Shown: piece by piece, positions 2,395 through 60,106 of the stretch
Layout: the number at the start of each line of letters is the position of its first letter
Numbering within the stretch: the stretch's first letter is position 1
DNA from: Candidatus Heimdallarchaeota archaeon
GTDB taxonomy: Archaea > Asgardarchaeota > Heimdallarchaeia > Heimdallarchaeales > Heimdallarchaeaceae
Assembly (NCBI GenBank): GCA_021399345.1
Contig: JAAFKI010000010.1
Span: forward strand, 19,696 to 83,695
Direction: 5' to 3'
Length of the DNA stretch: 64,000 nucleotides
Program-made: the position numbers and the translations under genes
The notes under the pieces: model-generated
Databases searched by the model: none
Seen by the model: only the letters and a program-made list of their open reading frames with translations
What the model was told of the DNA's origin: nothing

Positions 2395-2399
2395 TTTTT

Positions 2400-3047: not shown

Positions 3048-3058
3048 GATATCACCTA

Positions 3059-4862: not shown

Positions 4863-4885
4863 GCTTTCGAACAACAGAAGTAAAA

Positions 4886-4925: not shown

Positions 4926-4933
4926 GGTGTTTA

Positions 4934-6100: not shown

Positions 6101-6213
6101 TTTCTCATCTCTCCAAAATAACTTATAAAATGAAACTTACTTTCACTTTTTAATGCTTGTTATAAGAAAGTAATGTTGTTCTGAACAAAATCATAAGAAA
6201 TTAAGCAATGCTT

Positions 6214-6867: not shown

Positions 6868-6993
6868 GTTTTATGTACTTGTTTTATATGTTAATAAGAA
6901 TTTCTTAAGCTGAAAAGACAAATCTCGGCTTCGAAGATAAATTTATGAGCAGTGCACAACAAATATCAATAACTTATTTACTCGTTCATAGAG

Positions 6994-7725: not shown

Positions 7726-7793
7726 TAATATTTACATTTTAATTTGAAATCTTAAAGGAAACATTATTATTGATTTGTTAAAAAGGGACTATA

Positions 7794-10323: not shown

Positions 10324-10372
10324 AGAATCACAGATATTCTTTGTTTTGAGTTAATTCAAGCAATATTTGCTG

Positions 10373-16232: not shown

Positions 16233-16284
16233 TGAAAAAACTTATAAGAAGCTCCGCGATTTTTATTTTACTAAAGTGGGAATC

Positions 16285-16689
16285 ATGCATCTTGAAAGTA
16301 TAACTGAGAGCGCGGAAACAATAGGAAAAGAAGTTCCAGGTCTTTTTGACGTTGCACAAGACCTTGCTCAGGTTTTGAAGAAAGGTAGGCTTATGCTCAA
16401 TAAATTATTTGATCAATGTAATCGTGAAGGATTAAACATAGATTTGAGCCCTGAAGAGCAGAATGAAATTTCTTTGAAAGTAGCATTAGTGACCAATCCT
16501 GACCAAGTTTTTCAATATGCACGAATTGTACAGCTTGTTTTTCAACTCAACTATTTCTCAAAATGCTATGAAAAAGCATTAGGATATGAAAAACTCCCCA
16601 ATATTATAGAAAAAGAGGCTAAAAAACTTCATGTGAAAATAGAAGAGTTTCGCAGACTAATAGAAAAGGAATACGTAGCAAGTATTTAG
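16285..16689 (+). CDS. hypothetical helical protein
   Basis: ORF with no recognisable motif. ATG at 16285 (the track gives GTG at 16276). Confidence 0.4.
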   Translation: MHLESITESAETIGKEVPGLFDVAQDLAQVLKKGRLMLNKLFDQCNREGLNIDLSPEEQNEISLKVALVTNPDQVFQYARIVQLVFQLNYFSKCYEKALGYEKLPNIIEKEAKKLHVKIEEFRRLIEKEYVASI

Positions 16690-16762: not shown

Positions 16763-17518
16763 ATGCTTAGTAAAAATGAGTTAGAGAAATACAATCGTCA
16801 AATTATAATCTCAAACATCGGTGTTGAGGGTCAAAAAACACTGAAATCAAGTAAAGTTTTGGTAATAGGTTTAGGCGGGTTAGGTTCTAGCGTTGTATAT
16901 TACTTAGCTTCAGCTGGGGTTGGAAATTTAGGATTACTAGATCAAGATAGAGTAGAATTGTCCAATTTAAATCGTCAAATTTTACATTATGAAACTGATC
17001 TGGATAAAACTAAAACAGATTCAGCATTCAACAAACTTTCTCAACTCAATTCAGATATAGAAATAATATTACACAAAACTCATCTTAATGAAAGTAATGC
17101 AGAAAAAATAATCTCTGGTTATGATTTTGTAGTAGAAGCGAGTGATAATTTTGAAACAAAATTCCTTGTAAATGATATGTGTATCAAATTGGGGGTACCT
17201 TTTGTGATAGGTGGTGTATTCCAGTTTGAAGGACAAATGATAACTGTTTTACCTAAAGAAACAGCTTGTTACAGATGTGTTTTCAAAGAAATACCCACAC
17301 CGGGTACTTATCCCACTACTGGAGAAGAGGGAGTTATGGGGACAACAGCAGGATTTTTTGGTTTAATAGAAGCCAATGAAGCTATAAAATATCTGATTTT
17401 CAAAGATAAAGATAAACTACTTGCTAACAAAATACTACACGCTGATTTACAATACAACAGCTTCGAAACCTTCGAAGTTGAGAGAGATGTAAATTGCATT
17501 TGTAGAAGAAATAACTAA
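16763..17518 (+). CDS. ThiF/MoeB/UbaA-family E1-like adenylyltransferase
   Basis: YNRQI, nucleotide-binding GLGGLGS, LDQDRVELSNLNRQ, and the CYRC pair typical of MoeB/ThiF E1-like enzymes. Confidence 0.85.
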   Translation: MLSKNELEKYNRQIIISNIGVEGQKTLKSSKVLVIGLGGLGSSVVYYLASAGVGNLGLLDQDRVELSNLNRQILHYETDLDKTKTDSAFNKLSQLNSDIEIILHKTHLNESNAEKIISGYDFVVEASDNFETKFLVNDMCIKLGVPFVIGGVFQFEGQMITVLPKETACYRCVFKEIPTPGTYPTTGEEGVMGTTAGFFGLIEANEAIKYLIFKDKDKLLANKILHADLQYNSFETFEVERDVNCICRRNN

Positions 17519-17564
17519 ATAATACAAGGTAAAGTTTTTTATCTTAAGATTAGGATTTCACAAT

Positions 17565-18134
17565 ATGAATAACAATGTGAGTTATTTTGTTCATCCTACA
17601 GCTTTTATCGAGGATGATGTTACAATTGGAGATGGAACAAAAATTTGGCATCAAGTACAAGTGAGAAAGGGTACAACTATTGGAAAAAATTGTATCTTTG
17701 GAAAATCTGTTTTTGTTGATTTTGAGGTTAAGATTGGAGATAATGTGAAGATACAAAATTTCGTTTCAGTATACCATGGTGTAACTCTTGAGGACGATGT
17801 ATTTGTTGGTCCTCATGTTTGTTTTACAAATGATTACTTGCCACGAGCTGCAAATCCTGAATGGGAATTAGTACCAACCCTAGTCAAAAAAGGTGCTTCG
17901 ATAGGAGCTAATGCTACTGTAGTGTGTGGAATAACTGTGGAAGAATATGCAATGATAGGTGCAGGAAGTCTTGTTTCAAAAGATGTACCAGCGCATGCTT
18001 TAGTTTTTGGTAATCCTGCAAGATTGAAAGGATATGTTTGTTATTGTGGTCATGTTATAACCAAAACAGATGATTATTTACCTTCTGGTACTATACTTAC
18101 ATGTGAAAAGTGTGACAAAGAAAATATAATATAG
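17565..18134 (+). CDS. left-handed beta-helix (hexapeptide) sugar N-acyltransferase, WbpD/WlbB-like, with C-terminal Cys4 ribbon
   Basis: FVHPTAFIEDDVTIGDGTKIWHQVQV... hexapeptide repeats, with a CYCGH...CEKC tail. Confidence 0.75.
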   Translation: MNNNVSYFVHPTAFIEDDVTIGDGTKIWHQVQVRKGTTIGKNCIFGKSVFVDFEVKIGDNVKIQNFVSVYHGVTLEDDVFVGPHVCFTNDYLPRAANPEWELVPTLVKKGASIGANATVVCGITVEEYAMIGAGSLVSKDVPAHALVFGNPARLKGYVCYCGHVITKTDDYLPSGTILTCEKCDKENII

Positions 18135-18338
18135 TAAATTTAGGAACTTTACATATTGCCAGAGCGGTAGAACATTTCTATTTCTTTTCTGAATTCTCTC
18201 TACATCCGACACAAACCTTAAATAACATGTTTACTTGATAACAAACTACTGAATCATCAAGAATGAAGAGTGTTACAAATCTATAAATGCAAAATCGTAC
18301 ACTAATATGATGATTAAAATTTGTTTAGGGGTTAACAA

Positions 18339-18548
18339 ATGAATTTAATTTCAATAAGATTGCCAAGTGAGTTTGTTGAAATTCTGGATGAAATGGTCCT
18401 ACAGGGTAGATATGCTTCAAGATCTGAAGCAATAAGGCTCGCGCTTAGAGATTTTTATAGGGAACACTATGCATCAAAACAATCAACTGATTTTCGTTTC
18501 CCAAATATTGACAACAAATATAATAATATCATTTTTGAAGATGATTAG
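18339..18548 (+). CDS. ribbon-helix-helix (CopG/CdrS-like) DNA-binding protein
   Basis: ISIRLPSEFVEILDEMVLQGRYASRSEAIRLALRDF is a canonical RHH beta-alpha-alpha pattern. Confidence 0.7.
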   Translation: MNLISIRLPSEFVEILDEMVLQGRYASRSEAIRLALRDFYREHYASKQSTDFRFPNIDNKYNNIIFEDD

Positions 18549-18726
18549 ATTCTTCAATTTCATCTATTTCCATCTATAAGGAGCATTTGAAGAAACGTTA
18601 GGTTTAACAAAGTGAGATTTTTTAGTAATATACAATCAGATTAAATGTGTCTTGGAGATAATCCAATACTGAAGTGTTAACTTTGAGATTAGATCTCTTT
18701 ACTGAAATCCAATATTGGTGGAAAAG

Positions 18727-19746
18727 ATGGTAGACATGAAACAAGATGATTCTAATGAAACAAGCTCCCTTGATGTAACAAAGAAGAATCGTTTTGTAAA
18801 GACTCAAAATTTCTTTTCAAAAATTAATGAAAAAATAACTCCTGCTTTACCTTATCTGAAAAATAGATACCTGAGATATTCTGTTTCTTTCGTCCTTCTA
18901 GGACTTGTAGTTTATCTTTACATTCTTTTTGAAACATTTCGTGAAGAAGAGAAAGCAAAGTTTCTATCCATCCCAATTCCTACGGCTGCTCTTGTTCCTA
19001 TGGGTTTAGTGTTTGCTCTTATCATGGTTCTATATGTTTCGTGGGATGATCCTTTTTTCAAGAAATACAGAACCCCTGGTTTGTATATGGTTATCTTAAC
19101 AACTGTTTTTTATGCATTAATTTTTTCAGGTATAGATACCTTTCTTTTTGATTTAGGAATAGCTAGATGGCTAACAAAACTAACTGGAACTATAGTGTCT
19201 TCTTTATTGATTGCTTTTGGTATGAATATTAGTGATGTTACTTGGTTAACAACGAGTTATATGACTAAAATTGATTTTATGACAGCTCCTAGTGGAGAAG
19301 CCGCAATACTCATTGATGCTAGGTGTAGTGGTATTCATTCCCTTACAATCTTTACAGCCATATTCCTAATCATGTTATTTGAAGCAAGAAAAAGACTACG
19401 TTGGAATTATAGAACAGGACTTGTTACATTAATTGGAATTTTTGGAACCTACTTCATCAATATTTTACGAATTATCATAGTAATTTCATTATACTACTTC
19501 TATGGAAGAGAGGTTGGAGAACCAGTACATAATTACCTCGGCTACATTATGCTTATTTTATGGATACCTGTTTTCTGGTTATTTATACTTCCTTTGAGTG
19601 AGAAAAAGGAGATTAGAGAACAAAGAAAACAAAAACGATTAGAAAGAAAAAAGAAGAAAAAAAAGAAAAATCGCAAAATAAGAACAGAAAACGTAGAAGA
19701 AAAGACCTCTGAAAGCGATATTGATGACTCTAGTTCTTCTTTATAG
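18727..19746 (+). CDS. archaeosortase/exosortase-family transpeptidase
   Basis: Polytopic membrane protein with DARCSGIHS (catalytic Cys motif), NILRI (conserved Arg) and a later VHNYLG His. Lys-rich then acidic/Ser tail. ATG at 18727 follows GGTGGA; the track start is TTG at 18715. Confidence 0.7.
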   Translation: MVDMKQDDSNETSSLDVTKKNRFVKTQNFFSKINEKITPALPYLKNRYLRYSVSFVLLGLVVYLYILFETFREEEKAKFLSIPIPTAALVPMGLVFALIMVLYVSWDDPFFKKYRTPGLYMVILTTVFYALIFSGIDTFLFDLGIARWLTKLTGTIVSSLLIAFGMNISDVTWLTTSYMTKIDFMTAPSGEAAILIDARCSGIHSLTIFTAIFLIMLFEARKRLRWNYRTGLVTLIGIFGTYFINILRIIIVISLYYFYGREVGEPVHNYLGYIMLILWIPVFWLFILPLSEKKEIREQRKQKRLERKKKKKKKNRKIRTENVEEKTSESDIDDSSSSL

Positions 19747-20886
19747 ATTTTCAAAAACCATTTTTGTTTTTTCTGCAGTATTTTGCCATGAAAGCTGTTT
19801 TACTACTTCCTTAGACTTTTTCTGAATTTCCTCAATCATCTTTGGATTGTTATGGATTTCAATTGCTTTTGCAGCAAAATGGTCAACAGATCTAGGTGTG
19901 ATTATCAAAGTATTCTTGTGGTCGAAAGTATCTGCTTCAGGAGTTGTTAATACAGGTGTTTGACATGCAAGAGCTTCAAGTAAGACTAAGCTCATCCCCT
20001 CATGACTAGATGGTAGTAAAAATAGATCTACAGAACTGAAAAAAGTATTCTTTCTATAATTGTCGTATATGTATCCGTAATCTATAATATTCTCTTTTAA
20101 CCCCAGCTTATTAATCTGGTTTAATATTTTCTTTCTTGAATTCAAATCATCTCCTGCAATGAGCAATTTGACTTCAGGTATTTTTTCTTTAATTTTCTTA
20201 ATTATTGGCAGAATTAAATGAGCTCCTTTTCCTGCTGTCATTCTTCCAAGGAACCCTAAAACCAATTCATTTTCCTTCTTATTGTAGATCTTTTCGTCTG
20301 TTTTGTAATGAATTCTTGAATCTACACCATTTGGGATGATAGTTATTTTTTCTTCTTCAATAGAGTAACATTTAACTAATTCCTCTTTAATGGCTTCACT
20401 AACTGCTATTAAATGACTGGCTCTTTTTAGAATTCTTTTTTCCACGAATTTCAATAATGGAAATAGAAGACGAACCCTTCGTTCAACCCAACTTAATTGT
20501 TTGAAAGGTAATTTGTCAACTCCTCGTTTTTCCCTGCTAAAAGTGGTATGAACGGTTTCAACAATGGGATATTTGTTTTTAATTCCTAATGACGATAGTA
20601 GATTCATATTTCCTTGAACTACATCGGGATTTAGTTTCTTAACAATTTCTTTTGACCTCTTCCAGTAGTTTCTAGAATAGAAATATCTTGAGGAAGAGGT
20701 TTCAATTAAGGATAAAAATGGTACTTCTATTTTTCCATTAGCTGATTCACAATCCTTAGTTGCTGAGATAATATGTGCTTCCCAATCTCCTTCTTCGTTT
20801 AAGATCTTGGCCAATTGGAAACAATAAATCCAAGTTGCTCCCCTTCTGTATTCTTGAGTTAGAAAGCATACTTTTTTCTTATTCAT
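19741..20886 (-). CDS. GT4-family (GT-B) glycosyltransferase
   Basis: C-terminal LLPSSHEGMSLVLLEALACQTPVL (E-x7-E region). 381 aa. Confidence 0.85.
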   Translation of the reverse strand: MNKKKVCFLTQEYRRGATWIYCFQLAKILNEEGDWEAHIISATKDCESANGKIEVPFLSLIETSSSRYFYSRNYWKRSKEIVKKLNPDVVQGNMNLLSSLGIKNKYPIVETVHTTFSREKRGVDKLPFKQLSWVERRVRLLFPLLKFVEKRILKRASHLIAVSEAIKEELVKCYSIEEEKITIIPNGVDSRIHYKTDEKIYNKKENELVLGFLGRMTAGKGAHLILPIIKKIKEKIPEVKLLIAGDDLNSRKKILNQINKLGLKENIIDYGYIYDNYRKNTFFSSVDLFLLPSSHEGMSLVLLEALACQTPVLTTPEADTFDHKNTLIITPRSVDHFAAKAIEIHNNPKMIEEIQKKSKEVVKQLSWQNTAEKTKMVFENL

Positions 20887-20890
20887 TATA

Positions 20891-21775
20891 TTACACCTGA
20901 ATTAATTCTTCAAAGCGAATAGCTAAAGTTTTCTTAACAACATCTTTGTAGTTTTTGTGAGTAACCGGTTTCATATCAAGCTTAATTACTAGTTTAAAGA
21001 GGTCTTCCAACAGTTTTCGCAGTTTAAAAGGCTCATAAATTGCATGAAGATAAAAACAAACATAGTCAGTGCTTTGATCTGTATATTGTTTGAAATTTTT
21101 TCTATATATTTTCTTTATTTCTTCGATACTTTTTCCCTTTTGTAACAACTCTTCAAAAGTTGGCTCAGTAACAGGAAGTTGGAGAATCTGTTGTGACTTC
21201 TTTTCTGTAGTTTCAAATTGTAATTGGAACGGTTCTGAATACTTATAGTCAGCTAAGAATTCTACTCCCTTTTCTTTCATGATTTGAAAATAGAATTTGT
21301 TTGTCTGGAAGTTTGGAGCCGCATTTGTTATAGGTACAGAATTGAATATTTGATTGTATTCTATGAAAATCTTCTCTATAAATTTTGATGTCTTTTCAAA
21401 AGAAAATCTCCTAAAGTTCGAAGACCATTCGACATGATTGTAACCATGAGGATGAATTTCAAATAATTCCTTATCATTATAGTTTTTCAAAAGTGTTTTT
21501 GCCGATTCTCTTATTCTTGCAGGTGGTAGAAGGACTCCGCGAAATAGGCTTTGTATGCTGTTTCTTCTCCATGGAGATATTGTAGAAAAAATCTTTTCCT
21601 TATGCCTTATTTTCCTGAAGATATTTCTCCCAGTAGCATATTTGCCTAAACTTAGGTAAATGGTTGTAGGAATACCTAATTTCTCGACTATGTTGTAAAT
21701 TTGAGGAATGCCTTTTTTCAAACCTTCAAATGTATCAACATCTACTCTTAGACAAAAGTGGGTTTCAGTATTCAT
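20891..21775 (-). CDS. ArnD-like carbohydrate esterase 4 (polyprenyl-phospho-aminosugar deformylase/deacetylase-like)
   Basis: LRVDVDTFEGLKKGIP, HPHGYNHVEW and LPVTEPTFEELL line up, from memory, with E. coli ArnD LRIDVDTFRGTREGVP, HAWDHHAW and IPVTLPTWDEVI. Confidence 0.65.
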   Translation of the reverse strand: MNTETHFCLRVDVDTFEGLKKGIPQIYNIVEKLGIPTTIYLSLGKYATGRNIFRKIRHKEKIFSTISPWRRNSIQSLFRGVLLPPARIRESAKTLLKNYNDKELFEIHPHGYNHVEWSSNFRRFSFEKTSKFIEKIFIEYNQIFNSVPITNAAPNFQTNKFYFQIMKEKGVEFLADYKYSEPFQLQFETTEKKSQQILQLPVTEPTFEELLQKGKSIEEIKKIYRKNFKQYTDQSTDYVCFYLHAIYEPFKLRKLLEDLFKLVIKLDMKPVTHKNYKDVVKKTLAIRFEELIQV

Positions 21776-21808
21776 TTTGTCACTTAACTCTTGTTTTTCT
21801 TTGTAATA

Positions 21809-23020
21809 TCAGCTTTCTATCGCACTATAATATACTTGTTCAATCTCTTTAGCTTTCTTCTCCCAAGTATAATTTTCAAGAACCTCTTCATACCCCAGCT
21901 TTCCTAACTCTTTTCTTCTTTTCTCAGATTCTAAAAGACTATTAATTCCATCAGCCAATCCAGATGGGTTCATTGAAGGAACAAGGACACAGTTTTCTCC
22001 AAATTTTGTTATTTCTCTAATTCCTGGAATATCCGATGCAACAACGGGTTTCTTCATCGCCATAGCTTCTAAGACACTAATGCTAGAAGCTTCAACTATA
22101 CTTGGAACAGCAACAATATCTGCCTTTGATAGGTATGAAGGTATTTCATCATTAGGGACCATTCCTATCAAACGGGTATTTTTATGCAATTTTAGTTTGT
22201 TAATCTCATTTTGAATTTTTTCTCTTTCAGGACCATCACCAATTATGAAAAGAATGGCATCAGGGTATTTTTCTACAACCTTTTGAAAACTTTGAACTAA
22301 ACATATTACTCCATTCTTAGCAACTAATCTTCTAGACGTCATTATAATGGGTCCTGTTTCCTTAAAAATAGAGGGATTTGGTTTTACGTCAGGTGAAAAT
22401 TTACCAATATCTACACCGTTGAGAATGGTTATTATTCGTTTTTTATACTTAGGCTTCACCCAATCTTTTACAGTTTCTGCAAAATCATAATCAGTATGTA
22501 TTTGAACTTCACTTCTTTTTACAAGAAAAGGAGCAAGAAAACGTTCCATCTTTCTGTAAAAACCAGCTTTAAATTTATTTGGTAATATTTGATTCCAATA
22601 TTTGTAATATGATCCATGAATTGTATTGATTATTTTAGCTTTGTTTCTCTTTCCAATAATTCTTGCAGCAATACCTGCTGAATATATGTGTCCATGACAA
22701 ATATCGAAAGATTGCTCTCTTCCTTTTTTTGAACGGAAAAATAATGATTTTGTAAGAAAAGAAAACTGTCTTGAGAAATTCAACTGTTGAGGATTATAAG
22801 AGCGTTTTATTATCCCCCCGAAATCGATTCTCTTGATATTCACTCCTTCAATTAGTGCTTCTTTTTTTGAGTTGGGTATGGCCCCAGTAATATAAGTGAC
22901 TTCATGCCCTCGTTTAACTAGTTCCTTTGCTAAATTTATAGCGTGAAGTTCAACTCCTCCACCAATACTTCCTTCATCGTTAGGACCTAACTCAAAGATC
23001 ATTGCTATTTTCAATGGCAT
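21809..23020 (-). CDS. GT4-family glycosyltransferase
   Basis: MPLKIAMIFE... start and EASSISVLEAMAMKKPVVASD E-x7-E region. ATG at 23020 (GTGAT 5 nt upstream) is preferred to the TTG at 23047. Confidence 0.85.
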   Translation of the reverse strand: MPLKIAMIFELGPNDEGSIGGGVELHAINLAKELVKRGHEVTYITGAIPNSKKEALIEGVNIKRIDFGGIIKRSYNPQQLNFSRQFSFLTKSLFFRSKKGREQSFDICHGHIYSAGIAARIIGKRNKAKIINTIHGSYYKYWNQILPNKFKAGFYRKMERFLAPFLVKRSEVQIHTDYDFAETVKDWVKPKYKKRIITILNGVDIGKFSPDVKPNPSIFKETGPIIMTSRRLVAKNGVICLVQSFQKVVEKYPDAILFIIGDGPEREKIQNEINKLKLHKNTRLIGMVPNDEIPSYLSKADIVAVPSIVEASSISVLEAMAMKKPVVASDIPGIREITKFGENCVLVPSMNPSGLADGINSLLESEKRRKELGKLGYEEVLENYTWEKKAKEIEQVYYSAIES

Positions 23021-23021
23021 T

Positions 23022-24011
23022 CTAATCACGCTTCTTTTTTGATGCAAAAATCTCTTGTAGAATCCCTAAACTCCAGAAAATATGACCTTCTATAAACATT
23101 AGAGGTAGCATAAAAAGGAATTGCCAATGCCTGTATTTTATCGTTTGAACAATTGAGACGATTTGAATCGCGATTATGTACAAACCAAAATACACCGCTA
23201 TTCCTACTCCCATCCATAGATTAACAAAAAGTACTATTGGTAGAAATAAACCTGTAAGAAAATACAGTACTGGTAATAGGTGCCATAACTCTAATCCCTC
23301 TTTATGTGTTCTGAAAAATTGTATTTTTCCTATAGCATATTTTTTTGACTTATTTCGAAATGCTTTGTGTTTCTGAGGTCTTTGGTGGTAAATTATTGCA
23401 CTAGGTGTAAAAAAGAGTTTTTTCCCTTTCTGAATTAATCTATAATTGATATCTGTATCTTCAGCTGTAAGCAGGGATTCATTAAATGGTAAAACCTCCT
23501 CTAGAGCTTCTCTTCTATAAGCTGCATTGCATCCTGCAGCGCTTTGAACAAACCGCTCTTTTTTGTTAAATATACTCTTAACTTGTTCTGACCATCTTCC
23601 TCCAAAAATAGTGTCGTAAATAGCACTAACCGCTTTCCCAAAAAGACTCTCATCTGGATATTCTAAATGAGGGCCTGCCACACATGCGACTTCACGGTCC
23701 ATTTTGTTAAAAGTTTCAATTAAATTTTTCAACCATTCTTTATCTGCTACTATATCTGAATCTGTAAAAACAATTATATCGCCTTGAGCTATTTTTAATG
23801 CCTCATTACAAGCAGCAGCTCTTGTTCCCCTATCCTCGTAAATTATCTTGCAATCATATTCCTTGGCAATATTAATAGAATCATCAGTTGAATGGCCATC
23901 AGCAATTATAATTTCATTGGGAGCTAAACTTTGTTTTTTTATTGATTCAAGACATGCTCTCAAGGTTGAATCATTGTTGTATGTTGGAATGATTAAAGAA
24001 ATACTGCTCAT
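23022..24011 (-). CDS. GT2-family glycosyltransferase with C-terminal TM helices (polyprenyl-phosphate sugar synthase-like architecture)
   Basis: SLIIPTYN, ADGHSTDDS and FTDSDI (DxD) motifs, then about 3 TM helices in the last 90 aa. Confidence 0.8.
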   Translation of the reverse strand: MSSISLIIPTYNNDSTLRACLESIKKQSLAPNEIIIADGHSTDDSINIAKEYDCKIIYEDRGTRAAACNEALKIAQGDIIVFTDSDIVADKEWLKNLIETFNKMDREVACVAGPHLEYPDESLFGKAVSAIYDTIFGGRWSEQVKSIFNKKERFVQSAAGCNAAYRREALEEVLPFNESLLTAEDTDINYRLIQKGKKLFFTPSAIIYHQRPQKHKAFRNKSKKYAIGKIQFFRTHKEGLELWHLLPVLYFLTGLFLPIVLFVNLWMGVGIAVYFGLYIIAIQIVSIVQTIKYRHWQFLFMLPLMFIEGHIFWSLGILQEIFASKKKRD

Positions 24012-24013
24012 TA

Positions 24014-24535
24014 TTATTCTCCACTCCTTTTAATCTTTAAACGTTCTTCATATAAGAAATGTTTTTTCTTGTACCCTTGTGATGCATACATGGCGTTTTG
24101 ATATTCAAATAACTGATCTGGATTCTCTGAGAGTATGATTTCAATTTTTGTTTTTGCTTCTTCTTTCAAAACATCTAAACTTTTTGCATCTGTTAAAGGA
24201 CAATACCAGACAAGCCAACGAAGACTGTATTCACTTTCATTGATTTTGTTTATTTTAAAAAAGAGGGGAAACAGTTCACAATCTAAAGGTCTGCTACTGT
24301 AAATGTCACACAAACCTTCTTCAGAAAGAAAATAACAATTGTTGCTATCTTCCCTTTTTGCAATTACTATAGTTGTATTTTCTCCCTGGTCAATATTGTT
24401 GAACCAATTTTTATTCTCTTGTAATTTGTTAATTCTTTCGAAATCACTGTTTGTTAAAGCTGGAGGTGTGCTTTTACAACACTTACTTTTACACTGTTTT
24501 GAGCAGATTTCAATTGGTTCCATTTCTCTAAGCAT
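24014..24535 (-). CDS. YkgJ/UPF0153-family cysteine-cluster protein
   Basis: N-terminal CSKQCKSKCC cluster plus a later CxxxxxxxPxxC. The start is ambiguous (TTG 24544, ATG 24535, ATG 24523). Confidence 0.6.
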   Translation of the reverse strand: MLREMEPIEICSKQCKSKCCKSTPPALTNSDFERINKLQENKNWFNNIDQGENTTIVIAKREDSNNCYFLSEEGLCDIYSSRPLDCELFPLFFKINKINESEYSLRWLVWYCPLTDAKSLDVLKEEAKTKIEIILSENPDQLFEYQNAMYASQGYKKKHFLYEERLKIKRSGE

Positions 24536-24559
24536 CCTTAGCAATTTTTTTGAATGATT

Positions 24560-25831
24560 CTAACTCAAATAAAATGAATCATTAATCATCTGATTCATAT
24601 CATCAGCTGGTTTAATCAATTCTGTTAATCCCTTGTTAGTAAGTTGATAAATAGCTGGTCTTGGATAGCCAAACTGTTCACTCATTGAAATTGTATATGC
24701 TCCACAATTGAGAACAACTAGTAAATCTCCTTCCTCAATCTCGAAATTGACTGCCTCATCACTCAGTATATCTACTGGGAGACATAATGGACCACCTATG
24801 TTTGTATATTGTCCTTTTCCCCTGAAATTTGCAGGAACAACACTATAGTGCGAATATCGCATTGGAATTAGTGTATTTGCACCAACATCAATAAAAGCCC
24901 ATTTTCTGCCCCACGATTTCTTTGTTCTTAACACCTTAGTAATTGCTACAAAACTATCCTCAATTAGGTATCTTCCTGGTTCAATGATTATTTTTTTGTT
25001 TTCAATATTGTCCATTTTTGTAGAAACTTGTTCACCTAGTTTTTCTAATTGAAACCCCTCTTTATCTAGAGTTGATTTGCTTGCTAATCCTCCCCCCAAA
25101 TTTATTTCGGAGAGTGAAATAGCCAGTTTATCCTCCAAATCAGCAACATACTCATTAAGAAACCCAAGTAACTCATCATAAAACTCATGTGACGTTAGGT
25201 TTGTTCCAACATGAGTATGAACTCCCACTGGATCCAAATGAGGGCTTTTCTTGGCATATTCAAATAGTTTTACTCCTCGAGAATAGTCAATTCCTAATTT
25301 GCTGTTTTTCTTTATCAACAGCTTTCTTTCAGTAGTTTCTTTCAATTTTGGATGTATTCTAACCGTGATTTTTTGAACTAACTCTAGTTTTTCCGCTATT
25401 TTTTCTACTTGTTTTATTTCGTTAAGAGATTCAACATTAAGATGATTTATTTTATTTGCAATAGCATAATTCAATTCATCTAAAGTTTTTGCTGGACCAT
25501 TAAGAACAATTTTGTTAAAGGGTACTCCTGCTTTTTCTGCCAATTTCAATTCAAAAAGTGACATAGCTTCAATACCTAGATCAAGTTTGTGTGATTCTTG
25601 TAATATTCTGCCTAGATAGTTAGCTTTTGCGGCATATGAAATGAATAAATCAGGAATATGCTTTCCTAACTTACTCTTTATTTCCAACACATTTTCTTTA
25701 AATCTTTGAAGGAGAAACAAGAAGAAAGGTGATGTCTTATTTTCTGCTAATGATTCTATGTCCTTCTGTTGAATCTGTAATTTGTTGTTTTCATAGCAAA
25801 GATAGGGGTAGTTCTCTATTATGTTTAACAT
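24560..25831 (-). CDS. fold-type III PLP-dependent decarboxylase (Orn/DAP/Arg decarboxylase family)
   Basis: SYAAKAN (PLP-Lys), HTHVGT, GGGL, EPGRYL, GPLCLPVD and CGAYT motifs. Confidence 0.85.
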   Translation of the reverse strand: MLNIIENYPYLCYENNKLQIQQKDIESLAENKTSPFFLFLLQRFKENVLEIKSKLGKHIPDLFISYAAKANYLGRILQESHKLDLGIEAMSLFELKLAEKAGVPFNKIVLNGPAKTLDELNYAIANKINHLNVESLNEIKQVEKIAEKLELVQKITVRIHPKLKETTERKLLIKKNSKLGIDYSRGVKLFEYAKKSPHLDPVGVHTHVGTNLTSHEFYDELLGFLNEYVADLEDKLAISLSEINLGGGLASKSTLDKEGFQLEKLGEQVSTKMDNIENKKIIIEPGRYLIEDSFVAITKVLRTKKSWGRKWAFIDVGANTLIPMRYSHYSVVPANFRGKGQYTNIGGPLCLPVDILSDEAVNFEIEEGDLLVVLNCGAYTISMSEQFGYPRPAIYQLTNKGLTELIKPADDMNQMINDSFYLS

Positions 25832-25952
25832 ATTGCTCTTGCGCTTACTATAATATTCTCTTTAATTAATATTATCGCTTGGGAATATTATGTTTAAATT
25901 CCAAATATGTCATTAGCCAGCATATTTTTGAATATCCTAAAGATTCTGATTT

Positions 25953-27113
25953 ATGGATAGAGATTCTATCTTCACCACCCTTTCTCAACTTGAAAACAAT
26001 GTTAGATTACAAGAGGGAATACATGGTATAATTAAATTTTTGGCTGTTATTGATAGATATCCTAACTACTCTATGATAAATTTGTCAAAAGAAGCTGGTT
26101 TTCCTATTCCAATATGTGTGGCCATTAGAAATGAACTTACAAAAATTGGTTGGTGTTCAAAAGAAAGTGGTGGTACTGAAATCACTGAATTAGGTTCTGA
26201 AGTTTTATCAGAACTAGGAAAATTCAATGAATCTTTCTCTTGTATTGATTGTAATGGTAGTGGGCTAAAGCTTCCCCTTGAAAATTACAAAGATTCCTTG
26301 ATACAAATTAGAAAATTTACAGATATGCGTGGTTCTCCAAATACTGTAATTGACCAATCGTTTGCTACAACAGAAACAAGTCTAGTTCGAGTTCTTACGA
26401 TGGGTGACAACTATGATCTTTTCCATGAGAATTATGCGCTTGTAGGTGACAGTGACTTAACCTGTATTCCTTTAGCACTGTTTTCTAATTCTAAATCTAG
26501 AATAGTTGTTTTCGACATAGATACAAGAATTCGAGATATAATTGATTGTGCGAATAAAGAACTTATACTAAATATTGAGTTTGTGGAACATGACTTAAGA
26601 AAGAATATTCCTGAGGAATATAAGAACCAGTTTGATTGCTTTGTAACTGATCCACCTTATACAATTAATGGTCTCAATCTGTTTATCTCTCGAGGTATAC
26701 AGCTAATAAATGATACTCAAGGTGGAAGTGGCTATCTTTCATTTGGAAGTAAACCACCTCAAGATCAACTTCAAATTCAGAAGAACTTGTCTAAAATGGG
26801 TTGTTTGTTTACCCATATTCTACCAAGATTTAATGAATATGTGGGCGCACAAAAACTGGGTGGGGTTTCAACTTTTTATCGATTGCAAATCTTATCTGAT
26901 GCTAAACCTCTCATAAGTACAGATTATGAAGGGATTCTTTATACTGGTGAAAGAAATCCAACAATAAGAGTTTATCAGTGTAAGAACTGTAAAAAAGAGA
27001 TTGAAGTTGGTCAAGGTAACAATTTTGTAACCATCGAACAGCTAAAAGAGGTTGGTTGTCCGAAATGCAATTCCCATATCTTTCATAAAAAAGGAGAAAG
27101 AAAGACAAAATGA
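25953..27113 (+). CDS. DUF43/BpsA-like aminopropyltransferase (branched-chain polyamine synthase family) with C-terminal zinc ribbon
   Basis: VGDSDLTCIPLA, FDIDTRI, HDLRKNIP and FDCFVTDPPYT match the remembered DUF43/BpsA motifs GDDDLxS, DIDxR and TDPPxT. C-terminal CKNC...CPKC. Confidence 0.65.
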   Translation: MDRDSIFTTLSQLENNVRLQEGIHGIIKFLAVIDRYPNYSMINLSKEAGFPIPICVAIRNELTKIGWCSKESGGTEITELGSEVLSELGKFNESFSCIDCNGSGLKLPLENYKDSLIQIRKFTDMRGSPNTVIDQSFATTETSLVRVLTMGDNYDLFHENYALVGDSDLTCIPLALFSNSKSRIVVFDIDTRIRDIIDCANKELILNIEFVEHDLRKNIPEEYKNQFDCFVTDPPYTINGLNLFISRGIQLINDTQGGSGYLSFGSKPPQDQLQIQKNLSKMGCLFTHILPRFNEYVGAQKLGGVSTFYRLQILSDAKPLISTDYEGILYTGERNPTIRVYQCKNCKKEIEVGQGNNFVTIEQLKEVGCPKCNSHIFHKKGERKTK

Positions 27114-27190
27114 TTTTAAACTGAACGTGGGATTATAGAACTAGATGCAGCAATAAATCTTTATTTAGAACAATACAGTTAGGTGTAAAC

Positions 27191-28870
27191 GTGTCTCGAA
27201 AATCCTATTTCGTTCCTACAATAATCATTGGGAAATTACTTCTGTTTTTCCTTATACTGTACTTCAATCTAGGGATGTATGGGTTCGATTCATATCTTCA
27301 TTTGCAATATGTTGATTCCATAATTAGTAATGGTCATATTTTGGAGCTTCCCATAGCACCATCTTATGCAGATTTTATTGGCTTTCATGTTTTTGCTTCA
27401 GCCATTTCTTCAATGACGGGATTAGAAGCTAATATAATCTATGAATTTGTGAGTACAATAATTCCAATACTTATTTTTGATTTGACCATAGTTGCATTTA
27501 TTCGTCACATGGATAAAAAGAAAAAAGGATACATATCCAACGATGTAAACTTAAAATATCTAGCACTGATTTTACTCTATCCTGCAATTATAGGAATTCA
27601 GATGCTCTTGGGACGACCCAATTCATTAGGAATAAGTTTATTCAGCCTGTGTTTATACTTATATCTATGCAAACCTGAAAGATTTAGAGCACAGATCTTA
27701 GCTGGTTTTCTTGCAATTGTTACACTCAAAGTTCATCATCTTTCTGCAATTTTCCTATTGCCTGTCATATTTTTTAGTAGTATATTTTTAGCTAAAAACT
27801 ACAGAGCTATACTTTCTCTAGTTTATGCCATTCCTGCTGTTTTAATAATACGAATTATACAAACTTCAAGAGAATTTTTTATAGTAAATCAATACTTAGA
27901 GGGGGCAAGCCCAGCTTATAAAAAAATGTATGATATTTTCATCAAAAATGAATATTTATTTCTAATTGCTTGGCTAGCAATAACTTTACTTGGATTTTTC
28001 ATAAGAATGAGATACGGTGAAAAAATATCTAATTTCTTTTCTTCTAGAAAACCAACCAAAATAATCTTAATTTCCTCAGTGTTTGCCATAGTAATTCTTG
28101 AGGTGTCTGGATTGTTTGTATATACTACTGCTCTTAATTCATGGTTTGTTACATTGGAACTCGGAATTATTGTGGTTTTGAGTGGGATTGCTCTGATATT
28201 CAACAATACTGCGCGAATAGCGTTATTTTCACTTGGTTTCTTTTTCTATGGTTTAACGGTAATTCTCTCTCTCATGTTTAAATCTGAGCATGAGCTTTCT
28301 TGGGTAGCCCCAAGAACTTTTATTTTCACAATTCTCTTTGTTAGCATATTAGCTTATATTACAATATCAGATATTCTTCCAAGACTTAAGGCTAAATGGA
28401 AAACACTTTTTGTTTCTGCCCTCATACTAAATTCTTATTTTAGCTTTGCTTACATGGGCAACCAATATCTACCGGGATATAATCTGACAAATTCTTATCA
28501 GGACATGACAATTGCTTATAGTATAGATTCAGCTGTTAATCTTTCAATAATCACACAATTAACAATAAGCATTCCATTTTCAATTTCAAAATTTATAGAT
28601 GGTTTCAATATTTACAATCGCAATACTCAAGTGTTTTTAAATTCGAGCAAGACGATTCAAGAGAACGGATATCTAATAGCAGGTTCAAACTATAGATACA
28701 TAGTATTAGGCACGGTTATGGATTTGTGGTTGGGGCTTCCTATGCGTTTGTCAACACAAGAATTGACTTATCTTTTGAATGTTTTACGACAAGGCTTTCC
28801 ATGGCCTAATAGACCAACCTTACATGTTGTTATAAGTAACAACCACAATTATCTCTTATATCCTTTGTAG
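27191..28870 (+). CDS. polytopic membrane protein, candidate GT-C-fold glycosyltransferase (ArnT/PMT-like)
   Basis: More than 12 predicted TM helices. The first external loop, GFDSYLHLQYVDSIISNGHILELP, resembles the D(E/S)xxY...G loop of GT-C enzymes. GTG start after AGGTG. No WWDxG motif. Confidence 0.45.
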   Translation: MSRKSYFVPTIIIGKLLLFFLILYFNLGMYGFDSYLHLQYVDSIISNGHILELPIAPSYADFIGFHVFASAISSMTGLEANIIYEFVSTIIPILIFDLTIVAFIRHMDKKKKGYISNDVNLKYLALILLYPAIIGIQMLLGRPNSLGISLFSLCLYLYLCKPERFRAQILAGFLAIVTLKVHHLSAIFLLPVIFFSSIFLAKNYRAILSLVYAIPAVLIIRIIQTSREFFIVNQYLEGASPAYKKMYDIFIKNEYLFLIAWLAITLLGFFIRMRYGEKISNFFSSRKPTKIILISSVFAIVILEVSGLFVYTTALNSWFVTLELGIIVVLSGIALIFNNTARIALFSLGFFFYGLTVILSLMFKSEHELSWVAPRTFIFTILFVSILAYITISDILPRLKAKWKTLFVSALILNSYFSFAYMGNQYLPGYNLTNSYQDMTIAYSIDSAVNLSIITQLTISIPFSISKFIDGFNIYNRNTQVFLNSSKTIQENGYLIAGSNYRYIVLGTVMDLWLGLPMRLSTQELTYLLNVLRQGFPWPNRPTLHVVISNNHNYLLYPL

Positions 28871-28879
28871 GTGAATAAA

Positions 28880-30013
28880 ATGGATCCTCTAAAAATTGTT
28901 CAAGTTACTCCTTTCTTCGGTTCAAGAAGTTATGGGGGCACTGAAAGATACGTGAGTAATCTTTCAACTGAACTTGCAAATAGAGGTCATCAAATTGATG
29001 TTTTTACAACTAAAAATAGTACCAAAGTCCCCTACCAGAGTTATTACAAGAACATGACTGTTCACCGATTCTATAGTCCATGGAATGTTTTTGGTATTAA
29101 TCCTGCATGTTTTATGTTTCATAAAATGCTCCAACTGAAGGATATTGACGTGTTTCATGTTCATTCCTATATATACTTCACAACTATTCAAGCTGCTTTA
29201 ACTAAATTACTTAAGAGAACTCCCCTACTTTTACACATTCATGGAGGCGTAGGAAGACCCCCATACAAAACAGGATTCTTAAAGGAATTTGCAAAACTAT
29301 TTTATGATTATACTTTAGGAAAATTTGTTCTATCTCAAGCAGATATAATTGCATCTGTTAGTTTACAAGATTCAAATTTGTTGGAAAAAACAATTCATTA
29401 CAATCTCAATAGGATTATTATCGTAAATAATGCAATTAATCCAGAAGATTTTCCCGAGATTTCACCTGTTTTGCAGAAGGAAATTGTGATTTCATATATT
29501 GGAGATTTGGAACCATGGAAAGGCATCCTCTATTATTCAAAGGTCATAAATAGGGTACTTAAACAGACAAAAAATATTTCTTTTTGGTTTGTGGGAAATG
29601 GGTCACTTTTCTCTGCTTTAAAAGATAAATTTGAAGAAGAAAAACGAGTAAAACTATTCGGAGCTATAGATCACAAAGAAATCCCCAAAATTTTAGAAAA
29701 GACACATATTTTAGTTCAACCTAGTTTCTGGGAAGGTTCTCCTACTACAATAATCGAAGCAATGGCAATGGGTATTCCTGTTGTTGCTTCCAATATTGGT
29801 GATATTCCTAGACTTTTGAACTCTGGTGAAGATGGCATATTGTTTGAAGCCGGGAATGAAAACCAGTTAGAGGAAATAATCCTAAATGTTGCAAAAAACT
29901 ATGATGAGCTAGTTGATACTGCAAGAAAAGCAAGGAGCAAAATCAGAAAAGACTTTGCTTTTAAGAATGTTACAAATCAAATTGAGGATTTGTATTATAA
30001 ATTAGTTTCGTGA
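28880..30013 (+). CDS. GT4-family glycosyltransferase
   Basis: QPSFWEGSPTTIIEAMAMGIPVVASNIG E-x7-E region. ATG at 28880 lies 7 nt after AGGTGA; the track start is GTG at 28871. Confidence 0.85.
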   Translation: MDPLKIVQVTPFFGSRSYGGTERYVSNLSTELANRGHQIDVFTTKNSTKVPYQSYYKNMTVHRFYSPWNVFGINPACFMFHKMLQLKDIDVFHVHSYIYFTTIQAALTKLLKRTPLLLHIHGGVGRPPYKTGFLKEFAKLFYDYTLGKFVLSQADIIASVSLQDSNLLEKTIHYNLNRIIIVNNAINPEDFPEISPVLQKEIVISYIGDLEPWKGILYYSKVINRVLKQTKNISFWFVGNGSLFSALKDKFEEEKRVKLFGAIDHKEIPKILEKTHILVQPSFWEGSPTTIIEAMAMGIPVVASNIGDIPRLLNSGEDGILFEAGNENQLEEIILNVAKNYDELVDTARKARSKIRKDFAFKNVTNQIEDLYYKLVS

Positions 30014-59102: not shown

Positions 59103-59203
59103 CGTTTAGAATATAGTGTACTGAATTTATAAAAATAATTGATTGGTATAATGATTTGAGTAGCTTTAAATATTCCTTTAGACAAGTGTTTGTCTTGATA
59201 AAC

Positions 59204-60106
59204 ATGAGCAGAGGATTGCGATCCCTTATTTGTGGAATATCATTAGTTTTGTTTTTAATTTGTTCTAGTGGTATTCAAACTCAAGCAGTTACTTGGACTA
59301 CTTATGGTTCAATGTACGAATATACTGAAGAGAGCACATTAGTCACCTATCAAGATGGAAAAAAATACGATGAAGGAACTTTCACAGATTCGTTAATGGT
59401 TTGGAACGTAACTGCTGTTGGAGATAAAGTATATTTTCAAACTAATTTCACTCCTTATTTCATGGGATTAGTTCATTTTGAAACACAACAAGAATATGAT
59501 GAATATTTGGAAGAACATTATTGGTGTGATAGTAATGAAGGTAATATGACTGTTGCATATTCAGTAGTTGGAACAGATTTCCGATTTGTTGATATGCTTG
59601 ATTATTCGCTATTACTTAATGCAACTGTAACTGAATTTGATATTAGGTTACTTTACCAAGAAATCTATGGTTTGTTTTTACCTATTAATCACACCTCATT
59701 TGGTTTCAAAACAGAGTTTAATTCAGATTTTATAACTGAGAAACCTATTCAAGATTTGGTCTTTACACAAGAAGATACCTTCGTTTTGGATAGAATGAAA
59801 TATGAAGGATATTACATATCTCTAGAATATTCCTTTTTCGATACTAAACCTGACTTAGATACTCGCTTTGATATCAAATTTATTACAAAGTATTCTCTAA
59901 ATGGGGAGTTATATTCATATGAGATTAGCGAACTAATCTATGATGTGACTCACAAAGAGAGAATTCAATATTATGAAACTTTGTTTACTCTAGATTCCCA
60001 ATATCGCCAAAATGGTGTTCGAAGAATTAGTTTTGCAGGACCTTTAATTATCTTAGGATCACTTATATTAGCTACTTATGCTTTGACTAAACGAAGAAGG
60101 AATTAG
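59204..60106 (+). CDS. secreted protein with C-terminal tripartite sorting-signal-like tail
   Basis: Signal peptide from the ATG at 59204 (MSRGLRSLICGISLVLFLICSSGIQTQA) and several N-x-S/T sequons. The C-terminus is SFAGP-LIILGSLILATYAL-TKRRRN (short motif, TM, basic tail). The track start is TTG at 59156. Confidence 0.6.
   Translation: MSRGLRSLICGISLVLFLICSSGIQTQAVTWTTYGSMYEYTEESTLVTYQDGKKYDEGTFTDSLMVWNVTAVGDKVYFQTNFTPYFMGLVHFETQQEYDEYLEEHYWCDSNEGNMTVAYSVVGTDFRFVDMLDYSLLLNATVTEFDIRLLYQEIYGLFLPINHTSFGFKTEFNSDFITEKPIQDLVFTQEDTFVLDRMKYEGYYISLEYSFFDTKPDLDTRFDIKFITKYSLNGELYSYEISELIYDVTHKERIQYYETLFTLDSQYRQNGVRRISFAGPLIILGSLILATYALTKRRRN

Follow-up and report, generated by a model that had tools for sequence, protein, structure and literature searches.

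Why does an archaeal gene cluster place an archaeosortase among glycosyltransferases and a homolog of ArnD, the deacylase of the bacterial Arn pathway? The question is raised by a stretch of 64,000 nucleotides from Candidatus Heimdallarchaeota archaeon (contig JAAFKI010000010.1, positions 19,696 to 83,695 of the forward strand), hereafter called the window. An earlier note, made from the letters of this DNA, had read the locus as a glycosylation island with Arn-like logic, joined to amine-generating enzymes and with the archaeosortase at its periphery. Our comparisons place the archaeosortase at the centre, as one of three invariant core genes. The real unit of the locus is a three-gene cassette of archaeosortase, a family 4 glycosyltransferase (GT4b) and an ArnD-clade deacylase of carbohydrate esterase family 4 (CE4), which has been expanded in Heimdallarchaeaceae. 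Its logic is better put as a sortase-linked amino-sugar cassette than as an Arn pathway. We propose an archaeosortase-centred cell-surface maturation locus, in which a sortase-coupled pathway would make a de-N-acylated (free-amine) hexosamine glycoconjugate, and we give this proposal about an even chance of being right. The core genes lie in the window as follows.

18715..19746, plus strand: archaeosortase of an unclassified subfamily, with about 7 transmembrane (TM) helices (Pfam Exosortase_EpsH, 2.9e-12)
20891..21775, minus strand: ArnD-clade CE4 protein, a predicted metal-dependent de-N-acylase (NCBIfam ArnD NF011923, 3.3e-22)
21809..23047, minus strand: GT4b, a BshA/PimA/MshA-like GT4 (best PDB matches BshA 3mbo/2jjm)

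Remote relatives of the locus were found by profile search, and the sortase, GT4b and the ArnD-like gene recur together in them across lineages with unrelated flanks, which is why we take these three genes as the unit. In a second Asgard lineage (L032, L033 and L034, labelled Thorarchaeota or Hodarchaeales at source), the ArnD-like protein has 28-30% identity to that of the window, and the flanks of L032 and L033 are wholly different (Arf-family GTPases, primase). In these two loci the ArnD-like gene adjoins an exosortase-family gene and an ortholog of GT4b, with 39% full-length identity to GT4b versus 21-23% to GT4a and GT4c, the other GT4s of the window. Three euryarchaeal metagenome-assembled genomes (L222, L228 and L231, with Methanomicrobia or Methanobacteriota labels) carry a sortase and an ArnD-like gene followed by a GT4b ortholog at 39%. 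On L147, an unplaced high-GC metagenome contig, a PMT_2 (GT-C) domain, the ArnD-like gene and a GT4b ortholog (42%) are joined by a sortase on the opposite strand. GT4b orthologs have 39-42% full-length identity to GT4b in L032, L033, L147, L222, L228 and L231, and 21-30% to GT4a or GT4c. When GTDB representatives were scanned with the sortase, the subfamily was found only at the same cassette loci. As a control, about 155 bacterial ArnD loci, the product of metagenome and genome scans meant for L032-like lineages, contained no sortase, GT4b, decarboxylase or YkgJ neighbours.

The PMT_2 domain of L147 is the 571-aa C-terminal part of a giant open reading frame (ORF) of 2130 aa (1585-7977, plus strand), immediately upstream of the ArnD-like gene. 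It begins as a MacB_PCD...FtsX permease and continues through long Ig/PKD-like repeats, making an unusual fusion of ABC permease and glycosyltransferase. Between GT4b and the sortase of the same contig lies a gene for a 137-aa protein (9934-10347, minus strand) with about 4 TM helices and no family match, which resembles small flippase subunits of the ArnE/ArnF type in size and topology. A single-sequence scan found no relatives of L147.

The ArnD-like protein gives the cassette its predicted chemistry. Sequence search of the PDB, Foldseek and NCBIfam all point to ArnD, as the earlier note had proposed, and a comparison of 20891-21775 groups the protein with ArnD and not with generic chitin/xylan deacetylases. 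Against NF011923, the model for ArnD as 4-deoxy-4-formamido-L-arabinose-phosphoundecaprenol deformylase and its only meaningful NCBIfam match, it scores 79.1 bits at near-full coverage, far below the cutoff of 382, and we class it by its sequence as a homolog of ArnD, not an ortholog. ArnD structure 8t0j was the sole meaningful sequence match in the PDB (1.3e-6 with the single sequence, 1.1e-14 with a profile of the 28-sequence family), and no generic CE4 enzyme appeared in that search even at E<10. Its AlphaFold2 (AF2) model is good (pLDDT 92) and also has 8t0j as top Foldseek match (7.7e-16, TM-score 0.70/0.75), followed by a CE4 enzyme at 1.7e-10. The D-x-D motif, the H-x-x-x-H motif and the distal His are all kept: RVDVDT, HGYNH and YLH(244) do not vary among 28 homologs or in any of the sortase-linked lineages, with D12, D14, H110, H114 and H244 as the invariant active-site residues, and RVDVDT and HGYNH of the window align with RIDVDT and HAWDH of ArnD. 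Hydropathy and charge analysis found neither signal peptide nor TM helix, so the protein is predicted to be cytoplasmic. Its closest bacterial relatives belong to genuine Arn operons with ArnB, ArnC, ArnT, formyltransferase and dehydrogenase. The sortase-linked proteins nevertheless form a monophyletic group apart from these bacterial Arn-operon ArnDs, with 100/100 bootstraps in a neighbour-joining (NJ) tree and 98/100 after euryarchaeal members were added. At the cytoplasmic face of the membrane, ArnD works on an N-acyl aminosugar that is linked to a lipid, and the ArnD-like enzyme should likewise expose a free amine on its sugar.

GT4b points to a similar type of chemistry. After BshA (1.5e-21), its best PDB matches are PimA and MshA, and it matches NCBIfam BshA over its full length (1.5e-31). 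It also matches stp2, an XrtA-system glycosyltransferase, with 105.8 against a cutoff of 409. No PIG-A-specific homology or PIGA-domain match was found in Pfam. BshA, PimA and MshA are retaining GT4 enzymes, which transfer GlcNAc or mannose to the hydroxyl of a small molecule or a lipid head group. Moreover, in bacillithiol, mycothiol and glycosylphosphatidylinositol (GPI) synthesis, the step after this transfer is de-N-acetylation to a free amine.

The third member of the cassette scores 47.9 against the exo/archaeosortase signature TIGR04178 of NCBIfam (cutoff 23). Its best subtype is ArtC, with 39 bits against a cutoff of 100. None of the ArtA-ArtH or Xrt* cutoffs was reached by the sortases of the window, L031 (a deep Heimdall relative), L032, L147 or L222, and none of these sortases matched ArtA; on these scores we assign the cassette sortases to an unclassified archaeosortase subfamily. 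Their catalytic residues are fully preserved. The triad Cys204/Arg252/His272 is invariant across lineages, and the motifs Cys, N-x-x-R and H-[DN]-Y occur in all cassette sortases.

Likely substrates stand next to the sortase in two lineages. Next to the cassette of L032 is a gene whose 590-aa product is secreted and acidic and ends in ...ETIPGF-TVLWILLPLIVVALIA-RKQLR, a textbook three-part PGF-CTERM signal. In L222, a beta-helix protein of NosD-like type, at a distance of about 3 kb from the sortase, ends in ...VLTPGF-ETVSAMLGLLFATIIAAML-KKRAS, again of PGF-CTERM type. The NCBIfam sorting-signal models gave no match on these tails, so the signals were identified by reading the sequences themselves. 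Only 4 ORFs across all the archaeal loci that were examined combine a signal peptide with a C-terminal TM helix and a basic tail, and 3 of them lie beside a cassette sortase (L032, L222 and L147). The 590-aa neighbour in L032 had been considered as a homolog of Mem559, an orphan membrane protein of the window described below; it was rejected as such, and turned out to be a PGF-CTERM substrate.

What was observed is the gene content, the homologies, the active-site conservation, the co-conservation of the cassette and the PGF-CTERM neighbours; from these we infer which substrates are used, on which side of the membrane each step takes place and what the amine does, as follows. At the cytoplasmic face, GT4b would use a nucleotide sugar as donor of an N-acetyl(acyl)-hexosamine and attach it to a membrane-bound acceptor, either a lipid-linked glycan or the head group of a lipid. 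Acting next, the ArnD-like metalloenzyme would strip the N-acyl group and leave a primary amine, and the amine-bearing glycoconjugate would be flipped outward. This order, from HexNAc-X to HexN-X and then flipping, is suggested by the resemblance of GT4b to BshA, PimA and MshA together with the action of ArnD on a lipid-linked aminosugar. In the same process, the archaeosortase would cleave PGF-type C-terminal signals of secreted proteins. The most economical role of the glycoconjugate would be that of acceptor, a 'linking sugar' or anchor whose amine resolves the thioester intermediate of the sortase. Alternatively, the glycoconjugate would decorate the sorted proteins. In Heimdallarchaeaceae, where the block comprises about 13 genes, the additions would presumably elaborate the glycan and add amine chemistry.

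A stronger form of the acceptor role may be drawn by analogy: this sortase subfamily would amide-link PGF-CTERM proteins to the amine of a hexosamine glycolipid made by the neighbouring GT4 and ArnD-like deacylase, as an archaeal GPI-like or 'linking-sugar' anchor. Such an anchor would be an analogue, not a homologue, of eukaryotic GPI anchoring and of the Wbp/Vim system of T9SS, described below. We consider this form possible and on the unlikely side. Equally tentative is its extension, by which the same anchor would occur in Asgard archaea and in methanogen-related Euryarchaeota, with the Heimdall decarboxylase and BpsA-like enzyme adding amine groups to it.

The expanded locus of the window surrounds the core with the following features.

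16763..17518, plus strand: ThiF/MoeB-type E1-like protein (Pfam ThiF, 5e-74)
17565..18134, plus strand: left-handed beta-helix (LbH) nucleotide-sugar N-acetyltransferase of the WlbB/WbpD/QdtC type (Pfam Hexapep, 2.5e-25)
18339..18548, plus strand: 69-aa ribbon-helix-helix (RHH, CopG-like) protein (Pfam RHH_1, 5.3e-10)
19741..20886, minus strand: GT4a, last gene of the operon (Pfam Glycos_transf_1, 3.9e-28; Glyco_transf_4, 1.5e-21)
23022..24011, minus strand: family 2 glycosyltransferase (GT2) with C-terminal TM helices (Pfam Glycos_transf_2, 1.2e-30; Glyco_trans_2_3, 1e-14)
24014..24544, minus strand: CxxCxxCC (YkgJ/UPF0153) Cys-cluster protein (Pfam PF03692, 5e-11)
24560..25831, minus strand: fold-type III pyridoxal phosphate (PLP) decarboxylase, first gene of the operon (Pfam Orn_Arg_deC_N, 6e-38)
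25953..27113, plus strand: BpsA/DUF43-family protein with an aminopropyl-/methyltransferase fold and a C-terminal zinc ribbon (Pfam BpsA_C, 2.8e-46)
27191..28870, plus strand: Mem559, a 559-aa polytopic membrane protein of an orphan family (matches its own family only)
28871..30013, plus strand: GT4c, a GT4 with a 0-bp gap to Mem559 (Pfam Glycos_transf_1, 2.8e-29; Glyco_transf_4, 1e-20)
59156..60106, plus strand: secreted protein, tentative candidate sortase substrate (signal peptide, C-terminal TM helix, basic tail)

A mechanical ORF listing recovered 11 of the 11 genes that the earlier note had placed here, with its coordinates and operon gaps, and additionally contained the RHH gene, which was absent from its gene list. 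Its family assignments for the cluster genes were upheld by Pfam and NCBIfam, with the CE4-like and 559-aa proteins lacking a Pfam match, and the motifs that it quoted are present. The six-gene minus-strand operon runs from 25831 to 19741 in the order decarboxylase, YkgJ, GT2, GT4b, ArnD-like, GT4a, and the BpsA-family gene is divergent from it. From the ORF coordinates, the gap between decarboxylase and YkgJ is 15 bp (24 bp with an internal ATG), that between YkgJ and GT2 is 2 bp, GT2 and GT4b overlap by 26 bp (a gap of 1 bp with an internal ATG at 23020), and the last two gaps are 33 bp (GT4b to ArnD-like) and 4 bp (ArnD-like to GT4a). Because GC content is even across the cluster region, at about 0.32-0.34, the cluster is a resident chromosomal one and not compositionally foreign. 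A horizontally acquired 'island' was therefore rejected.

Gene order is identical in about 20 Heimdallarchaeaceae loci: GT4c-Mem559-BpsA, then decarboxylase-YkgJ-GT2-GT4b-ArnD-like-GT4a, then archaeosortase-RHH-LbH-ThiF. Since this order is kept while the identity of the ArnD-like protein ranges over 45-96%, the cluster is not a product of chance, and the gene-neighbourhood conservation on which the earlier note had made its reading depend is present. L031 has an ArnD-like protein of 39% identity and a GT4a of 44% identity, and keeps the six-gene operon together with sortase, RHH, LbH and ThiF genes; the operon there lacks BpsA, Mem559 and GT4c as neighbours. The decarboxylase, YkgJ, GT2, LbH and the trio of BpsA, Mem559 and GT4c are lineage-specific additions. 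In one Heimdall relative (JGI 3300042731), a gene of metallo-beta-lactamase fold is inserted between BpsA-like and Mem559, and a gene for a Yip1-domain membrane protein between LbH and ThiF. Just past the cluster of L031, where synteny with the window breaks, lies a Cas12f1-like/TnpB gene with a TNB domain (16829-17620, minus strand).

Several of the additions can be assigned to families. The best PDB match of the LbH protein is WlbB 3mqg (5e-46), followed by 4mzu and QdtC, and it stays below the cutoff of the NCBIfam NeuD/PglB/VioB subfamily. The RHH protein (39.3 bits, cutoff 20.5) is probably a local transcription regulator; relatives carry a 69-72 aa RHH_1 gene at the same position. A ThiF-type gene stands beside LbH in all Heimdall loci including L031 and is absent from the cassette in other lineages; the membership of its product in the pathway is uncertain. 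The YkgJ protein, kept in the L031 operon, has a weak match to the lysine-N-methylase FliB (8e-5). Beside these stand the two proteins from which the earlier note had drawn an amine theme. The PLP decarboxylase has LysA 2p3e as best PDB match (5e-49) and scores 248.1 bits against NCBIfam lysA TIGR01048, below the equivalog cutoff of 297.9, and 173 bits against the exosortase-A-associated decarboxylase TIGR03099, with a cutoff of 478. The BpsA-like protein has a clear BpsA_C domain (158.2 bits, cutoff 27) and matches PDB 2qm3 (1.4e-36) and BpsA 5xnc (2.1e-34); in the PDB alignment the GDDD motif reads GDSD in the window protein. By family, this enzyme may transfer aminopropyl or methyl groups. 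The amine theme is compatible with the sortase-linked picture, but it has only operon position behind it and is specific to Heimdall. An S-adenosylmethionine (SAM) synthetase of the bacterial/eukaryotic MetK type (S-AdoMet_synt_N/M/C domains) lies at 4934-6100 on the minus strand, and the same gene occurs near the L031 cluster; this gene could be relevant should the donor of the BpsA-like enzyme be derived from SAM.

An Arn-type reading draws on the GT2 and Mem559 as well. The best NCBIfam matches of the GT2 are MftF, EpsD and PgaC, of the membrane GT2 type, with a TM helix from residue 245 in its C-terminal membrane part. It has no ArnC or GtrB match in the PDB, and its match to dolichyl-phosphate mannose synthase (DPMS) is 5e-4 over 100 aa. 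When compared by tblastn with long bacterial Arn loci, about 70 in number, it matched in 4 of them, and there over no more than the N-terminal ~100 aa. The ArnC-like GT2 of the earlier note has therefore to be given up: across NCBIfam, PDB and Arn loci there is no ArnC-, GtrB- or DPMS-specific similarity, and by these comparisons the protein is classed as not ArnC-like.

Mem559 has no match in Pfam, NCBIfam or the PDB, with single sequence or profile, and a HMMER search of 1.84 billion representatives found no relatives outside its own Heimdall family except a marginal one, P0137, without a Pfam domain. Five of 24 homologs match DUF6541 weakly. Its topology (N-terminus inside, acidic first loop, about 11-13 TM helices and a 160-aa C-terminal domain) is compatible with GT-C enzymes and not diagnostic of them. 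The first loop carries an invariant GFDSY-HLQY motif, in which D33, H37, Q39 and Y40 are invariant, and its Asp-15-Gly spacing is the same as that of PDEGRYAEIAREMxxSGDW in ArnTs from the retrieved Arn operons. An AF2 model was poor (pLDDT 55, from a shallow alignment with Neff about 2), and the Foldseek matches of this poor model were all non-significant (E>1), with GT-C enzymes as 7 of the top 9. Bacterial Arn operons supplied 37 ArnT sequences for a profile, against which Mem559 scored 15 in hhalign and reversed controls 19-20; against the PMT_2 domain of L147, the 27-residue loop motif alone aligned. Mem559 is possibly a member of the GT-C family. The GT-C/ArnT-like call of the earlier note is thus compatible with topology and loop, but in hhalign ArnT does no better than reversed controls.

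Other genes of the window were noted in passing. A Ribophorin I homolog (14090-16183, plus strand; Pfam 2.2e-18), a eukaryote-like homolog of an oligosaccharyltransferase subunit, combines a signal peptide with a large ectodomain rich in sequons, a single TM helix and a cytoplasmic tail of about 160 aa forming a coiled coil. Directly after it comes a gene for a conserved 137-aa protein without family (16276-16689, plus strand). Beyond ThiF the loci are rearranged: this pair is inverted in some Heimdall loci and MutL is found in others. Since some Heimdall loci have Ribophorin I in inverted orientation or MutL in its place, and L031 lacks it, it was rejected as a member of the system. A 401-aa protein (46089-47294, minus strand) has a C-terminal bactofilin domain (4.6e-18) of the polymer-forming cytoskeletal family. 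The MutS of the window (10373-13030, minus strand) has 885 aa and is free of inteins, likewise in L001; the MutS proteins of two related Heimdall contigs contain an intein (Intein_splicing and LAGLIDADG) and have 1324-1338 aa.

Several points weigh against the sortase-coupled pathway. It is a bioinformatic proposal, and an amine nucleophile is still hypothetical for ArtA itself. Within +/-10 kb of the cluster, none of the Heimdall loci has a PGF-type substrate. The fourth ORF with a three-part tail, at 59156-60106, is about 39 kb away and has no PGF motif. This protein (316 aa, rich in sequons for N-glycosylation, no family match, ending in ...SFAGP-LIILGSLILATYAL-TKRRRN) is the sole product in the window with signal peptide, C-terminal TM helix and basic tail, and its tail could be the sortase signal of the lineage or a plain membrane anchor. 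The cluster contains no VimA/FemAB-like aminoacyl transferase, and the acceptor of GT4b could be soluble. The role of a sugar donor fits at least as well with the PMT_2 GT-C beside the L147 cassette, and possibly with Mem559, so decoration of proteins by GT-C transfer may apply. Moreover, the housekeeping neighbours MetRS, MutS and DeoC are likewise syntenic in Heimdallarchaeaceae, so that the constant gene order there, taken by itself, could reflect general synteny; much of the conservation is shared with such housekeeping genes, and hence the membership of the peripheral genes depends mainly on operon structure. Finally, the tree of ArnD-like proteins is a simple NJ tree of about 300 columns.

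How do other explanations compare? The cluster may be an ordinary surface-glycan or exopolysaccharide (EPS) cluster that sits beside a sortase because both serve the envelope, with the deacylated sugar inside a polymer or glycan, as in PNAG or Pel, and no sortase coupling. Four glycosyltransferases and an acetyltransferase are typical content of such clusters, and GT4b and the decarboxylase match the XrtA families stp2 and TIGR03099; some ArnD-like members weakly match the deacetylase TIGR03006, and a Ribophorin I homolog is near. Haft (2006, PMC1569441) moreover linked EpsH with EPS genes. However, outside Heimdall the minimal cassette has one GT4 and one deacylase, and the loci of L032, L147 and L222 contain no polymerase, flippase, chain-length or priming transferase genes. 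The deacylase is also predicted to be cytoplasmic and ArnD-like, suited to lipid-linked monosaccharide chemistry and not of the secreted PgaB/IcaB/PelA type, and the linkage to Ribophorin I is inconstant. We therefore consider this explanation unlikely. A still more sceptical reading treats the peripheral genes as housekeeping genes held by synteny, with the decarboxylase as the organism's LysA (diaminopimelate decarboxylase) or as a polyamine decarboxylase and the BpsA-like enzyme as a polyamine synthase, and leaves only the glycosyltransferases and the deacylase as a pathway. It draws on the closeness of the decarboxylase to LysA (248 bits), on the clear BpsA_C membership, on the equal synteny of housekeeping genes across Heimdallarchaeaceae and on the separation of BpsA, Mem559 and GT4c from the operon in L031. 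On the other hand, the decarboxylase falls under the LysA equivalog cutoff, heads a tight operon with YkgJ and glycosyltransferases (15-bp and 2-bp gaps) and is kept in L031 despite different flanks, and we give this reading only a slight chance.

The pathway of the earlier note deserves separate weighing. In it, the GT2 would load polyprenyl or dolichyl phosphate with an N-acyl aminosugar, the ArnD-like enzyme would deacylate the sugar, Mem559 would act like ArnT and pass the cationic sugar to a surface acceptor, and the sortase would act on these acceptors only in parallel. The homology to ArnD is real, and the nearest bacterial relatives lie in Arn operons with GT2 and GT-C genes; the PMT_2 domain of L147, of the ArnT family, is directly upstream of the ArnD-like gene; and Mem559 offers its GT-C-like topology, the ArnT-like Asp-15-Gly spacing and top Foldseek matches enriched in GT-C enzymes, though non-significant. 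Against this, the GT2 is not of ArnC, GtrB or DPMS type, Mem559 matched the ArnT profile no better than reversed controls, and the ArnD-like proteins form a separate clade. Both GT2 and Mem559 are missing from the cassette in L032, L222, L228 and L231, and Mem559 is not adjacent in L031. Equivalents of ArnA and ArnB are also missing: no formyltransferase, UDP-sugar dehydrogenase/decarboxylase or DegT aminotransferase was found anywhere in the 64-kb window. Thus the ArnD-like part of that proposal stood and the ArnC-like part did not. Outside Heimdallarchaeaceae, the companion of the ArnD-like gene is a GT4, not the GT2. We regard the full Arn logic as rather improbable, less so than the housekeeping reading and more so than the ordinary glycan cluster, and retain the sortase-coupled pathway as our proposal.

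Comparison with known systems can help to understand this proposal. With the Arn system (PmrHFIJKLM) the cassette shares an ArnD homolog with the same fold and the same metal and catalytic motifs, predicted to be cytoplasmic and to produce a free amine on a membrane-linked aminosugar, and in one lineage, L147, a GT-C of the PMT_2/ArnT family beside the cassette. It differs in having no ArnA or ArnB in the window, a GT2 that is not ArnC-like and a GT4 and an archaeosortase as conserved partners. In addition, the target in the window cannot be lipid A.

The closest experimental analogue is the Wbp/Vim "linking sugar" of type IX secretion (T9SS) in Porphyromonas and Tannerella. There PorU amide-links T9SS cargo to a linking sugar made by WbpD (an LbH enzyme), then the CE4 deacetylase VimE, then VimA, so that the C-terminus of the protein becomes attached to a sugar that bears an amine (PMC7468200). 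Both systems have a sortase for C-terminal signals, an LbH enzyme of WbpD/WlbB type, a CE4 deacetylase and glycosyltransferases; WlbB, the best PDB match of the LbH protein in the window, is an ortholog of WbpD. However, PorU and archaeosortase are unrelated, the window has no VimA/FemAB and no WbpA/B/E, its deacetylase is of the ArnD clade, and the T9SS anchor is anionic lipopolysaccharide (A-LPS), which is absent in archaea. The authors of the T9SS study speculated on a similar compound for exosortases at loci that contain a deacetylase and glycosyltransferases (PMC7468200). In bacteria, EpsH correlates with GT4 and CE4 families (Haft 2006, PMC1569441), and such PEP-CTERM/EpsH/XrtA loci resemble ours in linking an exosortase to GT4s, a CE4 deacetylase and, by NCBIfam names, a PLP decarboxylase. 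The window differs from them in its archaeal sortase subfamily, PGF-type instead of PEP-type signals and lack of chain-length, polymerase and PrsK/R/T genes; its proteins miss all XrtA-system cutoffs, and its deacylase has no match to TIGR03006.

Among archaeal sortases, ArtA-dependent lipid anchoring needs PssA and PssD in Haloferax and Methanosarcina, artA is syntenic with their genes in Methanosarcina, and an amine nucleophile has been proposed (PMC7157517). The likeness lies in an archaeosortase that acts on PGF-CTERM proteins and is tied, by genome position or by function, to enzymes producing a membrane-bound primary amine, the proposed nucleophile and anchor. In the ArtA system, a CDP-archaeol transferase and a pyruvoyl decarboxylase provide this amine in the form of archaetidylethanolamine, whereas here a sugar amine made by GT4 and CE4 enzymes is predicted, and NCBIfam does not class the cassette sortase as ArtA. 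Glycan loci associated with sortases, and the link of ArtA to PssA/PssD, are already known. A looser likeness joins the cassette to GPI (PIG-A/PIG-L and transamidase), mycothiol (MshA/MshB) and bacillithiol (BshA/BshB) synthesis, in all of which a GT4 is paired with a de-N-acylase, and in GPI anchoring a Cys transpeptidase also swaps a C-terminal hydrophobic signal for a glycolipid. This is analogy only: the deacylase here is of CE4/ArnD and not of LmbE/PIG-L type, and the transpeptidase is unrelated to GPI8.

A 2018 review placed archaeosortases in "a subset of Euryarchaeota", and in the literature we found neither an account of Asgard archaea with an archaeosortase system nor one that ties an ArnD-clade/GT4 cassette to archaeosortases. 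The present loci extend archaeosortase systems to Asgard archaea, whose surface biology bears on eukaryogenesis. Among ArnD-like enzymes they point to a functional subfamily that is new and stands outside lipid A modification, and they flag Mem559, a Heimdall-specific orphan, as a candidate for a new GT-C. It has long been asked to what exosortases and archaeosortases attach their proteins, with an indirect case for archaetidylethanolamine in ArtA only and nothing for exosortases. The conservation of the cassette across phyla, with a PGF-CTERM neighbour in two lineages, leads to the prediction that sorted proteins would bear a de-N-acylated hexosamine glycoconjugate at, or on, their mature C-terminal region.

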